Source: Planctomycetota bacterium (lineage in GTDB: Bacteria > Planctomycetota > PLA2). Taken from it: 25,399 nt of DNA. How positions within the stretch are numbered: position 1 is the stretch's first letter; every line of letters begins with the position of its first letter. The stretch lies in contig JAKLKT010000002.1 of NCBI GenBank assembly GCA_023150495.1, positions 1-25,399 of the forward strand, in the 5' to 3' direction. Below the pieces are notes generated by a model that had not been told where the DNA came from, did not search any database, and saw only the letters and a list, made by a program, of their open reading frames with translations. This document shows, piece by piece, positions 1-4,245 of the stretch. The translations under genes were made by a program, and so were the position numbers.

Positions 1-658
1 CCTTCGCCTCCTTCGCGGCCTTGCCCTTGAGCTCGACCACGGGCTCGGCGCTCGGCGCGTCGCCCTCGGCCCCGGCGGCCGCGGCCGCCTCGGCCGGCGC
101 GGCCTCCTCGACCTTGCGCTGCGGGACGACGTGCACGATGAGATCGCTCGCGTGGCCCGCGGCGCGCACGTTGGGCGGGAAGACGACCTCCCGCACGTGG
201 ACGCCTTCGAAGAGCTTCAGCGCGGAGACGTCGATGCGGATCTCGTTCGGGATCGAGTCGACGCGGGAGAAGACCTCGATCTCGGCCTTCACCAGCTGGA
301 GCTCGCCGCCCTCGCCGACGCCCGCGGGGACGCCGAACGTGTGGACGGGCACCTTGATCCTCACCTCGTCGCTCATCTCGACGCGGACGAAGTCCACGTG
401 CTGGACGTACTCGCCGAGCACATCCCACTTCACCTCGCGGAGGAGCGCGGTCTGCTCCTGCTCGCCGAGCTTCAGCCGGACGAGCGCGCTGTGGGCCTTG
501 AGCACCTCGCCGATGTCCTTGGCCTTCGTGAAAAGCGGGACGTTGCTCTGCTTGCCGCCGTAGAGGATGCAGGGCACGCGGCCCTGGCGGAGGGCGCGCC
601 GCGCCTGGGCGCTGCCGCTGGTCTCGCGCTTCTCGACGGGAAGATCGAGGATCTGCAT
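1..658 (-). CDS. rplY: 50S ribosomal protein L25 / general stress protein Ctc (TL5-type long form), 3' end runs off the window
   Basis: Manual translation from ATG at 658: MQILDLPVEKRETSGSAQARRALRQGRVPCILYGG...EVKWDVLGEYVQHVDFVRV...VPVHTFGVPAGVGEGG..., with an Ala/Glu-rich tail. GAGG lies upstream. Located downstream of prs, the usual prs-rplY order. Absent from the ORF track because no stop falls inside the window. Confidence 0.95.
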   Translation of the reverse strand, partial: MQILDLPVEKRETSGSAQARRALRQGRVPCILYGGKQSNVPLFTKAKDIGEVLKAHSALVRLKLGEQEQTALLREVKWDVLGEYVQHVDFVRVEMSDEVRIKVPVHTFGVPAGVGEGGELQLVKAEIEVFSRVDSIPNEIRIDVSALKLFEGVHVREVVFPPNVRAAGHASDLIVHVVPQRKVEEAAPAEAAAAAGAEGDAPSAEPVVELKGKAAKEAK

Positions 659-755: not shown

Positions 756-1709
756 CTACTCGTCCAGGTCCATCTGGAAGAGCCGGGAGACCGACTCCGC
801 GTGGTGGATCCTGAGGATCGCCTCCCCGAGGAGCCGCGCGACCGACAGCACCCTGAGGTTCGGCCGCTGCTTCGCCTCGGGGAGCGGGATCGTGTCGGTC
901 ACGACGGTCGCCTCGACCGGCGCGGCGTCGAGCAGCGCCATCGCGTTCCCGCAGAGGAGCGCGTGGGTCGCCGCGAGGTAGATCTCCTTCGCGCCGAGGT
1001 CGTGGACGGTCTTCGCGGCCTGCGTGATCGAGCTCCCGGTCGAGATCATGTCGTCGATCAGCAGCACGCCCTTGCCTTTCACCTCGCCGATGACGCTCAT
1101 CACCTCCGTCACGCGATCGGAGACGCGCCGCTTGTCGACGATCGCGAGGCCGGCGTTGAGCCGCTTCGCGTAGCCGCGCGCGAGCCGCGAGGAGCCGACG
1201 TCGGGCGCCACGACGACCAGGTCCTTGATGTCGAGGCGGCGGAAGTAGCGGCTCAGCACGGGCGACGCGTAGAGGTGGTCCACGGGGATGTCGAAGAACC
1301 CCTGGATCTGGGCGGCGTGCAGGTCGAGCGCGAGCACGCGCGACGCGCCCGCCTGGACGATCATGTTCGAGACGAGCTTCGCGGAGATCGGGACGCGCCC
1401 CTCGTCCTTCCGGTCCTGGCGGGCGTAGCCGAAGTAGGGGACGACGGCCGTGATCCGCTCCGCCGAGGCGCGCTTGAAGGCGTCGATCAGGAGCACGAGC
1501 TCCATCAGGTTGTCGTTCACCGGCGGGCAGGTCGGCTGGAGGACGAAGACGTCCGCGCCGCGCACGTCCTCCTCGATCTTCACGCGCACCTCGCCGTCCG
1601 GGAAGCGCGTCACGCTGGCCTCGCCGAGCCGGATGTTCAGGTGCTCGCACATGCGCTCCGCGAGCGGCCGGTTGGCGGTGCCGCTGAAGACCTTCATCGA
1701 GTTGGCCAT
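756..1709 (-). CDS. prs: Ribose-phosphate pyrophosphokinase (PRPP synthetase), 317 aa
   Basis: C-terminal half of ORF 756..2678. MANSMKVFSGTANRPLA..., FPDGEVRVKIEEDVRG, PYFGYARQDRK, DLHAAQIQGFF, VAPDVG, LIDDMISTG. AGGAG SD before ATG 1709. Confidence 0.97.
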   Translation of the reverse strand: MANSMKVFSGTANRPLAERMCEHLNIRLGEASVTRFPDGEVRVKIEEDVRGADVFVLQPTCPPVNDNLMELVLLIDAFKRASAERITAVVPYFGYARQDRKDEGRVPISAKLVSNMIVQAGASRVLALDLHAAQIQGFFDIPVDHLYASPVLSRYFRRLDIKDLVVVAPDVGSSRLARGYAKRLNAGLAIVDKRRVSDRVTEVMSVIGEVKGKGVLLIDDMISTGSSITQAAKTVHDLGAKEIYLAATHALLCGNAMALLDAAPVEATVVTDTIPLPEAKQRPNLRVLSVARLLGEAILRIHHAESVSRLFQMDLDE

Positions 1710-1794
1710 CGGTTCTCCTGTCGCCGCGCCCCTCCCCGGACGCGGCGTCCTTGCGCGGCGTTGATTCTTCCATCCCGCGGCGACCGCGGGAAGG

Positions 1795-1810
1795 CCCCGG
1801 AGCCCCCCCG
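1795..1810 (+). repeat. C-tract motif family A, copy 2
   Basis: Exact CCCCGGAGCCCCCCCG, 9 nt after the glmU stop (G-rich on the mRNA). Confidence 0.6.
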
Positions 1811-1819
1811 GATGAGCCG

Positions 1820-2767
1820 TTACGGAAGCGTCGCGCCGTCGGGAACGACGGCCCCGCGCGGCACGTGCGCGTGCGGGCCGATGCGGCACTTCCTCCCGAT
1901 GCGGGCGCCGGCGCCGACGAACGTGAACGGCAGGAGCGTCGTGCCCGGGCCGATCTCCACGTCGACATCGATCCTCGTGGAGTCGGGGTCCGCGATTCGG
2001 ACCCCTTCGAGGAGGAGGCGGTCCACCGCCCGGCGGCGGAGGATCCGCACCGCCTCGGCGAGCTCGAGGGGGTTGTTGACGCCGAGCGCGGCCCCCTCGT
2101 CGAGCGTCCGGAAGGCGTCCACCGGCAGGCCGTCGGCGAGGAGGAGGCGCGGGACGTCGGTCAGGTAGTACTCCCCCTGGGCGTTCTCGGGGGTCAGGCG
2201 CGCGAGCGCGGGGGCGAGCCGGTCGATGCCCGCCACCATGACCCCGGTGTTGATCTCCCTCACGGCGCGCTCCGCGGGGGTGGCGTCCGCGGTCTCGCGG
2301 ATGTCCTTGAGGCGGCCGTCCGGGCCGCGGAGGATCCGGCCGAGCGAGCCCGGCTCGCGCACCTCGGCGGAGAGGACGGTGAGCGCGCGCTGGGCGCGGG
2401 CGTGGTCGCGGACGAGGTCCCTTAGCACCGCGGAGGTGAGGAGCGGGGTGTCGCCGCAGACGACGAGGACATCGCCGCCAAAACCCCTGAGCGCGGGCAG
2501 GGCGCACTGGACCGCGTGACCCGTCCCGCGCTGCTCCGCCTGGTGCGCGAGGACGACGCCGCTCTTCGCGAGCGCGGCCTTGACCGCGTCGCCGCCGTGG
2601 CCGTGGACGACGACGACGGGCCCCGAGGCCACGGGCTGAAGCGCCGCGAGGACGTGCTCCAGGAGCGCGCGGCCGCACGCCTCGACGAGCACCTTGGGCA
2701 CGTCCGCCTTCATCCGCTTGCCTTGGCCCGCGGCGAGGACGACGGCGGCGAGAGGTCTTTCCTGCAT
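1820..2767 (-). CDS. glmU: Short GlmU-like protein: GlcNAc-1-phosphate uridyltransferase domain plus a truncated left-handed beta-helix, 315 aa
   Basis: VVLAAGQGKRM..VPKVL, QAEQRGTGHAV, VVCGDTPLL, GRILR, EINTG, NAQGEYYLTD, GVNNPLEL, then only a few hexapeptide repeats before TAA. Sits upstream of prs as in glmU-prs clusters. Confidence 0.88.
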   Translation of the reverse strand: MQERPLAAVVLAAGQGKRMKADVPKVLVEACGRALLEHVLAALQPVASGPVVVVHGHGGDAVKAALAKSGVVLAHQAEQRGTGHAVQCALPALRGFGGDVLVVCGDTPLLTSAVLRDLVRDHARAQRALTVLSAEVREPGSLGRILRGPDGRLKDIRETADATPAERAVREINTGVMVAGIDRLAPALARLTPENAQGEYYLTDVPRLLLADGLPVDAFRTLDEGAALGVNNPLELAEAVRILRRRAVDRLLLEGVRIADPDSTRIDVDVEIGPGTTLLPFTFVGAGARIGRKCRIGPHAHVPRGAVVPDGATLP

Positions 2768-2840
2768 GGCTACCCGGCCAGGATTCGAACCTGGACTAAG
2801 AGATCCAAAGTCTCCTGTGCTACCGTTACACCACCGGGTA
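2767..2840 (-). tRNA. tRNA-Gln(UUG) with encoded CCA
   Basis: Reverse complement folds as TACCCGG/CCGGGTA acceptor stem (U1-A72), GGAGA-CTTTGGA-TCTCT anticodon arm (TTG), CCAGG-TTCGAAT-CCTGG T arm, discriminator G, then CCA. Confidence 0.97.
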
Positions 2841-2869
2841 TCGGCTCATGGGGCGCGTTTGAGGAGCCG

Positions 2870-2883
2870 GCCCCCGCACCCCC
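2870..2883 (+). repeat. C-tract motif family B (GCCCCCGCACCCCC), copy 1
   Basis: Exact 14-mer also at 15700-15713, 16649-16662 (reverse) and 19737-19750. This copy lies 5 nt after the cinA stop. Confidence 0.6.
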
Positions 2884-2885
2884 TA

Positions 2886-2891
2886 AGCCTA
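2886..2891 (-). promoter_or_regulatory. Candidate -10 element (TAGGCT) for the tRNA-Gln-glmU-prs transcript
   Basis: TANNNT hexamer overlapping the cinA stop codon, 45 nt upstream of the tRNA 5' end. Same hexamer as before mqnC. No recognisable -35. Confidence 0.3.
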
Positions 2892-4103
2892 ACCCAGAAG
2901 GCGGTGGCGGAGCAGGTCGAGCGCGATCCACGCGAAGCGGCGGCGGACGGCGTTCCGGTCGCCGCGGCAGGAGACCTTCTCGACCGCCTCCCCCTTCGGG
3001 CCGACGATGGCCACGAACCCGCGCCCGGTCGGGGTCCCCTTCTCGTCGAGGTCGGGGCCGGCGACCCCCGTCGTCGCGATCCCCACGTCCGCCGAGAGCT
3101 TCTTCCGCGCGGCGCGCGCCATGCGGAGAGCCGTCTCCTCGGAGACGGTGCCCTCCTTCGAGAGCACGGTCTTCGGCACGTCGAGGAGCTCGTGCTTCGC
3201 CTCCGCGACGTAGGCGACGATCGACCCCTTGAGCACCTGGGACGCGCCGGCCTGGTCGACGACGAGGCTCGCGAGCATGCCGCCCGTGATCGACTCCGCC
3301 AGCGCGAGCGTCAGCCCGCGCTCCTTCATCGCGCCGAGGACGACGCCCGCGAGCGTCTGGTCCCCCTCGCCGAAGACGTAGGGGCCGAGCCTCTTCCGGA
3401 TGTCGCTCGCGCGCTGCTCCGCGGACGCGCCGGTGATCGTGATCGTGATGATCCCGTCGCGCACGTTGACGCCGACGACCGGGTCGCGCGCCCGGTCGAG
3501 GAGCTCGCCCAGCTTCTCCGCCACCTCCGCCTCGCGGAGCCCGAACACGCGCAGCACGCGCGAGGGCATGGGCTTCGTCCCCGCGAAGGTCGCCTTCATG
3601 TCCGGCAGCACGGACTGCTCGAAGATCGCCTCGAGCTCGAGCGGCACGCCCGGGAGCGCGTAGACCGGGGTGCCCCCCATCTCCACGCGGAGCCCCGCTG
3701 CCATTCCGACCGGGTTCGGGAGGATGACCGCGCCCTCGGGCACGCGCGCCATGCGGGCGTTCCTCCGCGGCGCCTTGCCGCCCGCCTTCTCCATGACCTG
3801 CGCCTTGAGCGTGCGGTCGGGCACGAGGAGCTTCCCGGCGGCGCCCGCCAGCGCCTCGCGCGTCACGTCGTCGGGCGTCGGGCCGAGCCCGCCCGTCACG
3901 ACGACGGCGTCCGCGCGCCCCGCGAGGCTCTTGAGCGAGTCCGCGATCGCGAACTCGTCGTCCCCGACCGTGTCGGTCGCGACGACGAGGAACCCCGCGT
4001 CGGTCAGCCGCTGCGCCATGTAGGGCGCGTTCGTGTTGATCGTCCGGCCCCCGAGCAGCTCGTCGCCGACCGAGAGTATGGCTGCGCGCGTGAGCTTCAT
4101 CAT
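2889..4103 (-). CDS. cinA: CinA family protein (molybdopterin-binding-like N-terminal domain plus NMN deamidase PncC domain), about 404 aa
   Basis: AAILSVGDELLGGRTINTNA, VVVTGGLGPTPDDVTREA, YALPGVPLE, LAESITGG, YVAEAK, GIATTGVAGP. ATG ATG at 4103/4100 preferred over the track start at 4136. Confidence 0.93.
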   Translation of the reverse strand: MMKLTRAAILSVGDELLGGRTINTNAPYMAQRLTDAGFLVVATDTVGDDEFAIADSLKSLAGRADAVVVTGGLGPTPDDVTREALAGAAGKLLVPDRTLKAQVMEKAGGKAPRRNARMARVPEGAVILPNPVGMAAGLRVEMGGTPVYALPGVPLELEAIFEQSVLPDMKATFAGTKPMPSRVLRVFGLREAEVAEKLGELLDRARDPVVGVNVRDGIITITITGASAEQRASDIRKRLGPYVFGEGDQTLAGVVLGAMKERGLTLALAESITGGMLASLVVDQAGASQVLKGSIVAYVAEAKHELLDVPKTVLSKEGTVSEETALRMARAARKKLSADVGIATTGVAGPDLDEKGTPTGRGFVAIVGPKGEAVEKVSCRGDRNAVRRRFAWIALDLLRHRLLG

Positions 4104-4245
4104 GGATTCCGACTTGCCGCTCCGCGAGCGGCGCACCCCATGCTACCGCCCGCTCCAAGGCGCCCGCTGCTCGCCGGCTGCCGCGGCCCAAGCTGACGTC
4201 CCGCAGCGGCGAAGGAACGGACGTTCGACACGATGCGCGGACCTC

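Follow-up and report, generated by a model that had tools for sequence, protein, structure and literature searches.

How can a protein gene be expressed when its start codon begins on the last nucleotide of a tRNA? The question is raised by a 25,399-nucleotide (nt) stretch of DNA from a Planctomycetota bacterium (contig JAKLKT010000002.1 of assembly GCA_023150495.1, positions 1 to 25,399), which we refer to as the window. On its minus strand a gene for tRNA-Gln(UUG) with an encoded CCA end (2767..2840) overlaps by 1 nt, on the same strand, the start of a glmU-like coding sequence of 315 amino acids (aa) plus stop (1820..2767), and the shared nucleotide, at 2767..2767, is both A76 of the tRNA and A1 of the glmU AUG. 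The explanation we favour, which we put forward tentatively, judging its chances to fall a little short of even, is that tRNA and glmU are transcribed together, that the transcript is cut at or inside the CCA to give a leaderless glmU mRNA, and that the tRNA is then restored by a CCA-adding enzyme. The genome of the window, G000, is a fragmented metagenome-assembled genome (MAG; 764 contigs, 77% complete, roughly 5 Mb, 72% GC), and is compared below with a sister species (G001), a third species of the same genus (G002) and other members of the family, which apparently has 11 species in the collection.

Read on the minus strand the junction is ...CCGGGTA-G-CCA-TG-CAG-GAA, with A2767 ending the CCA and opening the ATG (2767-2765) of an open reading frame (ORF), 2767..1820, whose 315-aa product begins MQERPLAAVVLAAGQGKRM. 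The preliminary description of this DNA had made the same claim, and ARAGORN, the sequence and the ORF table agree with it, as does the junction kept in G001. The tRNA is called by ARAGORN with anticodon TTG and by Rfam (RF00005, matching 2770..2840 at 63.9 bits against a gathering score of 29). Its acceptor arm reads 5' TACCCGG ... CCGGGTA-G-CCA 3', with a U1-A72 pair and discriminator G73, which together with an encoded CCA are features of the bacterial tRNA-Gln acceptor. The encoded CCA is genuine, as essentially every normal-length tRNA of G000 ends in CCA, and this is the sole Gln tRNA with a UUG anticodon found in the G000 assembly, where it is present in a single copy.

The start of glmU is equally well placed. 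The in-frame codons from the TGA at 2846-2848 down to the ATG were read by hand and include no ATG, GTG, TTG, CTG or ATN, and the next in-frame ATG falls within the KRM of the catalytic LAAGQGKRM loop. In the alignment the ten family orthologues all share this start position, with M-x(1-7)-[ED/Q]RPLAA as their N-terminus, and the earlier view that only one start is possible upstream of the LAAGxGxRM motif is thus upheld. The same is true of the claim that glmU has no Shine-Dalgarno (SD) sequence: there is no GGAGG-like core 5-12 nt before the ATG, because the region from -5 to -15 is the acceptor stem, the upstream sequence being CCGGGUAGCC, that is stem and tail. CCA followed by TG occurs at 4 of about 31 tRNAs in G000 and is not rare in itself; what exceeds chance is its use as the start of a conserved gene that is under purifying selection.

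The junction does not depend on a single assembly. Six Logan assemblies, each from a different run, agree with the window at all of the 201 bases surrounding the junction, and gene calls on 13 contigs include exactly this 315-aa protein. A contig of a 98%-identical strain crosses the junction with no indels. G001 (90% aa identity) has the same junction, and its tRNA is identical at 74/74 positions. For glmU the synonymous divergence between G000 and G001 (dS) is 0.355, and the ratio of non-synonymous to synonymous divergence (dN/dS) is 0.18. Because the same junction is found despite this divergence, the overlap has persisted under purifying selection, and is neither a mis-assembly nor part of a dead gene.

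Genes without a leader leave a strong signature in this genome. We used a crude set of gene starts, comprising long ORFs with a GC content at third codon positions (GC3) above 0.88. SD use is weak in G000, with an SD-like core at 29% of starts and at 23% of control positions. The first base of a TANNNT hexamer peaks at -12 to -15, where it is found at 16.7% of these starts against about 1% expected, or at 12.7% once cases mimicked by an in-frame stop are removed; the top -10 hexamers genome-wide are TAGAAT, TACAAT and TAGACT. Such spacing is a hallmark of leaderless transcripts, and therefore the ribosomes of G000 routinely start at a 5'-terminal AUG or GUG. Among the glmU orthologues two have a -10 hexamer of this leaderless type, GATAAT-N6-ATG in G003 and TACCCT-N6-ATG in G006. 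In G000 no TANNNT hexamer ends about 7 nt before the glmU start, as the bases from -12 to -7 are GGCCGG and belong to the acceptor stem. They are GGCCGG in G001 also, and in these two species a leaderless glmU mRNA could therefore arise only by RNA processing.

A promoter for a shared transcript may lie upstream of the tRNA. Of 10 family loci, 7 retain a TANNNT hexamer (TAGGCT, TACACT or TAGACT) ahead of tRNA-Gln, at -17 to -24 in five genomes and at -51 and -63 in G000 and G001 respectively. In the window it is TAGGCT (2886..2891, minus strand), which overlaps the TAG stop codon of the upstream gene cinA and which, from its conservation in the family, we take as the putative -10 of a tRNA-Gln/glmU transcript. 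Cotranscription of tRNA-Gln and glmU is likely, because a -10-like box is conserved upstream of the tRNA and none fits between tRNA and glmU. A consensus sigma-70 scan also found no promoter between the two, a result that is uninformative in a GC-rich genome. Only 3% of Gln codons in G000 are CAA, and a shared transcript is the more plausible because demand for tRNA-Gln(UUG) is then low.

Between the putative -10 and the tRNA there is a leader with a GC-rich hairpin (2841..2885, minus strand), recognised from its fold and from the alignment of G000 with G001. It is found only in this genus, and its stem is kept by paired changes, GUGCG/CGCGC in G000 and GUGUG/CACAC in G001; its role may be to terminate cinA or to direct processing. 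Downstream of glmU, prs has an AGGAGAA SD 4 nt before its ATG, and this and a GGAAGAAT box are conserved in G000, G001 and G002. The conservation suggests that the box is a prs promoter and that prs is expressed separately and in conventional manner. The unit to be considered is therefore tRNA-glmU and not the whole cluster, and the coupling of prs and rplY that had been envisaged earlier need not hold.

From the anatomy of the locus, its conservation, the genome-wide leaderless signature and the enzymes present we infer the following course of events. The tRNA-Gln(UUG) and glmU would form one transcription unit, with its promoter upstream of the tRNA (-10 TAGGCT, 2891-2886). RNase P would excise the tRNA together with an endonuclease acting at the 3' end, for which the family's RNase E/G-type enzyme is the most likely candidate, and a cut between C75 and A76, or elsewhere within the CCA, would leave a glmU mRNA starting at the AUG or no more than 2 nt from it. 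The product of a C75/A76 cut would be an mRNA with a 5' phosphate directly on the AUG, to be translated as a leaderless message, and the tRNA ending in ...CC would be completed by a CCA-adding/repair enzyme. With a cut after A76 or further downstream, for example in the A-rich codons 2-4, the tRNA would mature but the mRNA copy would be lost; mature tRNA and glmU mRNA would thus partly compete. As to origin, we suggest that a single genus lost a short spacer, its family being one where a leaderless glmU is common, and that the compaction may have been tolerated because the lineage initiates translation without leaders; it would not be a glutamine-sensing device.

The processing enzymes of the family bear on several of these steps. 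Two genes of the PolyA_pol family are present in each genome checked, and in G000 one of them has an HDIG domain and is of the CCA-adding/repair type, the other being PcnB-like. RNase E/G is present in G001, G004, G008 and G009. In Propionibacterium acnes, cleavage inside encoded CCA triplets has been observed and repair proposed (PMC3848588), and in human mitochondria the one-base overlap of tRNA-Tyr and tRNA-Cys is repaired after cleavage (PMC4787750; review PMC4284800). The signature of an RNase E cut is U at +2 (PMC5222698), and this preference would place a cut by that enzyme between C75 and A76, GCC|AUG. A canonical RNase Z was found in neither G000 nor G001, and only G009 has a near-full match to TIGR02651. 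The best matches in G000 and G001 score 79-101 bits against a cut-off of 293 and are without profile positions 150-197, and G000, G001 and G004 have a 224-aa metallo-beta-lactamase (MBL) protein, below the cut-off, that has no tRNA-binding arm. The preliminary description had argued that the position of the 3' cut decides the fate of glmU. That logic is sound and the cotranscription it presupposes is likely; its route by RNase Z, with a cut after the discriminator, is unlikely, because no canonical RNase Z was found and all tRNAs encode CCA.

There are several points that weigh against the course of events we propose. RNase E/G was not found in G000, for which the assembly is 77% complete. When reads of four runs (two RNA, one probable DNA and one unclassified) were placed on positions 1800-4200 there was no RNA coverage at 2700-2900, and the locus was confirmed by them at the DNA level only. 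The TAGGCT box is 51 nt upstream of the tRNA with the hairpin in between, and the hairpin is possibly a terminator of cinA. In the E. coli-type pathway for CCA-encoding tRNAs a downstream cut is followed by exonucleolytic trimming, and such a cut with trimming would destroy the glmU AUG. The tRNA context is dispensable, as G002 has glmU without the tRNA, and the spacers of 6-20 nt at other genes that abut tRNAs would give short leaders, not true leaderless messages.

Comparison of the spacer, which we measure from the tRNA-Gln CCA to the glmU start, places the overlap in an older arrangement. The spacer is -1 nt in G000 (the window locus) and -1 nt in G001, with its identical junction, and 6 nt in G010. 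It is 9 nt in G005, where an in-frame GTG directly follows the CCA, then 28 nt in G008, 32 nt in G007 (with a GGAGAGG SD-like site), about 55 nt in G004, and 82 and 90 nt in G003 and G006, each of which has its own leaderless-type promoter. In G009 it is 200 nt; there the tRNA is followed by a terminator made up of a hairpin and a U-tract, and glmU starts with a TTG that has GGAG ahead of it. No tRNA lies upstream of glmU in G002, where homology to G000 begins only at GCC-ATG with neither cinA nor tRNA upstream, and tRNA-Gln(UUG) was not found anywhere in the G002 assembly (86% complete). The tRNA is 300-950 nt from glmU, and sometimes inverted, in the sister family within the order. The pair recurs beyond the order, with tRNA-Gln(UUG) preceding a glmU of like orientation in Actinomycetota, Sumerlaeota and Coprothermobacterota; the spacers there run from 19 to >100 nt and the SDs are ordinary. 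A tRNA is next to glmU at 12 of 80 named loci and is always tRNA-Gln(UUG), and no mention of this cross-phylum synteny turned up in a literature search. The pattern indicates that the synteny is old and the 1-nt overlap a recent, genus-specific end point of spacer loss. This comparison of related genomes had been proposed as a check in the preliminary description, and its outcome, variable spacing from -1 to 200 nt with SD-like GGAGAGG or GGAG at some homologous loci, a terminator at one and own leaderless-type promoters at two, goes largely against the model offered there.

With regard to G002 we also observe that no tRNA is adjacent at 3/3 of the tRNA-abutting genes examined (L003, L155, L160), and that homology breaks within a few bases of the start codon both at glmU and at the neighbour of tRNA-Glu.

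Other tRNAs of G000 are also followed closely by genes. A PP-loop ATPase gene starts 8 nt after tRNA-Val(CAC) (7 nt in G001; G000:C512:1530-1615). A gene for a CarboxypepD_reg protein starts 20 nt after tRNA-Glu(UUC) (21 nt in G001; G000:C666:1891-1990), and the 1-nt insertion in G001 shows that the second ATG is the start of that gene. In the case of tRNA-Ala(GGC) a hairpin is followed by an ATG at +40 (G000:C446:11144-11260). At none of these three loci is there a promoter-like box between tRNA and gene. In contrast tRNA-Thr(CGU) is followed by CCA-TC-TAGAAT-N7-GTG, the GTG being the start of an RNase HII-like gene that has a box of its own (G000:C298:236-254). The promoter of this last gene is of the leaderless type, and its -35 region must fall inside the tRNA gene. 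It is possible, although on the whole we doubt it, that the lineage uses tRNA excision as a regular source of leaderless or near-leaderless mRNAs, a bacterial form of tRNA punctuation, with glmU as a case that would need a cut inside the CCA and repair of a CC-ended tRNA.

A metagenome scan with an 18-mer of the tRNA-Gln end plus ATG gave 38 contigs. On 0/38 was the gene glmU, and most had short or wrong-frame ORFs. Two real but unrelated genes take their first base from the terminal A of this tRNA-Gln CCA, one for a DUF819 membrane protein (L129:2365-3504, minus strand) and one for a DUF5615 protein (L125:219-584, plus strand), both with full-length Pfam coverage from the N-terminus. The number of such overlap starts is, on a rough estimate, about that given by uniform spacing; we therefore take the overlap as tolerated, no preference for it being demonstrable.

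The alternative that survives best, and that we still think unlikely, is that ribosomes start on glmU internally, independent of an SD, while the tRNA is still part of the precursor. Maturation of the tRNA would destroy that copy of the message, each transcript would end either as tRNA or as template for GlmU, and no cut or repair within the CCA would be involved. The setting would suit it, since all tRNAs encode CCA and no canonical RNase Z was found, as for an exonucleolytic pathway, and weak SD use genome-wide means that SD-less internal initiation exists. In a genome of 72% GC the codons after the AUG (CAGGAAAGA) are unusually rich in A, as befits an RNase E site and equally a start region free of structure. 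However the AUG is 3 nt from a stable 7-bp acceptor stem, and the ~15 nt of upstream sequence needed by the 30S subunit would be locked in the tRNA fold. Moreover the orthologues in relatives are set up as leaderless, and the similar packing at other tRNAs points to a pathway that is productive and not wasteful.

We consider improbable the model of the preliminary description, in which the choice between RNase Z and RNase E cuts couples synthesis of UDP-N-acetylglucosamine (UDP-GlcNAc), and perhaps expression of prs and rplY, to maturation of tRNA-Gln and to glutamine status. The overlap is confined to two species of a family with spacing from -1 to 200 nt, and the relatives have SD-like sites, a terminator or own promoters, or as in G002 have glmU without the tRNA. 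No canonical RNase Z was found, prs has its own SD and promoter-like box, and no element sensing glutamine or tRNA charging was found, Rfam matching only the tRNA. What speaks for the model is the old and unexplained synteny across phyla (12/80 named loci), and the rare CAA at glmU codon 15, although the latter has a probability of about 0.2 by chance. No tested result supports glutamine sensing as such, for which the synteny is the sole support.

That glmU has its own promoter within the tRNA gene, for example with TCGAAT of the T-loop as -10 and a leader of ~10 nt or none, is more improbable still. The tRNA-Thr at C298, directly followed by a -10 box, shows that promoters embedded in or adjoining tRNA genes occur, but in tRNA-Gln there is no TANNNT in the 3' half and GGCCGG at -12 to -7. 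At position 2 TCGAAT does not have the A that is nearly invariant there, its end is 16 nt from the ATG, and the consensus scan found nothing. An artefact, be it a mis-assembled or collapsed spacer (the way out that the preliminary description had left), a wrong start codon or a decaying gene, might be suspected in a MAG as fragmented and incomplete as G000, but it was tested and has next to no chance of being right given the six independent assemblies that agree, the strain contig, the same junction in G001, the absence of an alternative in-frame start and the dN/dS of 0.18.

Two other features near the junction were looked at and set aside. An upstream ORF that might pass ribosomes on to glmU could only be the sole frame ending nearby (TAG, 2772-2770), which is a spurious alternative frame of cinA; it has 473 aa and no Pfam match, and the last codon at which it could start is the TTG of the anticodon. 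An exact 8-bp inverted repeat around tRNA and glmU (2842-2849 and 1812-1819) has neither arm kept in G001 (AGGAGCCG / CGCGTCAT) and is probably due to chance.

The glmU-like protein is itself unusual in being short. It has Pfam matches to NTP_transf_3, NTP_transferase and Hexapep, and the uridyltransferase domain is present, with residues 7-303 matching GlmU profile positions 2-296 (TIGR01173 / NF0109xx) and the LAAGQGKRM motif at residues 11-19. The C-terminal left-handed beta-helix acetyltransferase part (profile ~300-452) is absent, only a short hexapeptide stretch being found. The NCBIfam GlmU models are accordingly covered only over profile positions 1-300 of ~452, at 274.2 bits against an equivalog cut-off of 366.85. 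Residue 315 is the last, and 110 nt separate the stop codon from the start of prs. No separate C-terminal half was found in G000 (77% complete) by tblastn with GlmU C-termini. The glmU of the whole family encodes only ~315 aa while order-level relatives appear full-length, and the ESM Atlas has a cluster of ~322-aa GlmU-like proteins labelled mostly Planctomycetota. The catalytic-loop Gln at codon 15 (2723-2725, minus strand) is encoded by CAA, the codon read by the upstream tRNA; G001, G002 and G009 share this CAA, which other genera lack, with a chance probability of ~0.2.

The order of genes on the minus strand is cinA, a 48-nt spacer, tRNA-Gln(UUG), glmU-like, prs and rplY. The cinA gene (2889..4136, with a called start at ~4100) has MoCF_biosynth, CinA_KH and CinA domains by Pfam. 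The glmU-prs spacer (1710..1819) contains a GC hairpin in addition to the box and SD discussed above. The prs gene, for ribose-phosphate pyrophosphokinase (756..1709, start from the called genes), has the Pfam domains Pribosyltran_N, Pribosyltran and Pribosyl_synth, and rplY/ctc, for ribosomal protein L25/TL5 (2..658, Pfam), is cut by the edge of the window.

The proposal has several parallels. Mitochondrial tRNA punctuation with leaderless mitochondrial mRNAs was reportedly described by Ojala, Montoya and Attardi in 1981, and as in mitochondria the tRNA here abuts a start codon with no leader, which would need ribosomes competent at a 5'-terminal AUG. As with human mitochondrial tRNA-Tyr and tRNA-Cys, a shared nucleotide would leave one product incomplete, and a nucleotidyltransferase can restore the tRNA 3' end. 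However the present case is in a free-living-type bacterium of roughly 5 Mb and 72% GC with CCA encoded in the genome, whereas in mitochondria the CCA is not encoded and RNase Z cleaves the tRNA behind the discriminator; and the overlap there is between two tRNAs while here it is between tRNA and mRNA.

Among bacteria, the E. coli thrU-tyrU-glyT-thrT-tufB operon gives a tRNA-mRNA cotranscript. There too a protein gene is transcribed from the promoter of the tRNAs ahead of it, and excision of these separates the two, but tufB has a leader of ~100 nt with an SD, where we have a spacer of -1 nt and no SD. P. acnes (PMC3848588) is similar in being GC-rich, with many leaderless mRNAs and no obvious RNase Z, and in that a cut inside the CCA leaves a repairable tRNA; it differs in that the cut is between the two Cs, makes no mRNA 5' end and involves no gene overlap. 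Initiation at a 5'-terminal AUG or GUG would be as for the leaderless mRNAs of Actinomycetota and Deinococcus (PMC4633059), but these derive from transcription while the glmU 5' end would be derived from processing and carry a 5' monophosphate. Literature searches on tRNA-Gln with glmU, bacterial tRNA punctuation and Planctomycetes leaderless mRNAs found no direct precedent. While tRNA punctuation, leaderless translation and 3'-end repair are each known, what is unexpected is the setting in a large GC-rich genome with encoded CCA.

For annotation, gene callers and tRNA finders need to permit overlaps of tRNAs with coding sequences, and we suggest that in prediction of operons and transcription start sites in Planctomycetota-like MAGs, tRNA promoters be counted as mRNA promoters. 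The locus is also a clean test case, with one nucleotide deciding between products and natural spacer variants of up to 200 nt in sister genera. If the proposal is true, tRNA punctuation would not be limited to organelles and tiny genomes but would operate in large genomes in which leaderless translation is common. The CCA-adding enzyme, usually deemed to serve only in repair where all tRNAs encode CCA, would gain a routine role in gene expression, and in these species the output of an essential cell-envelope enzyme would be tied to the processing of a tRNA for a rare codon.

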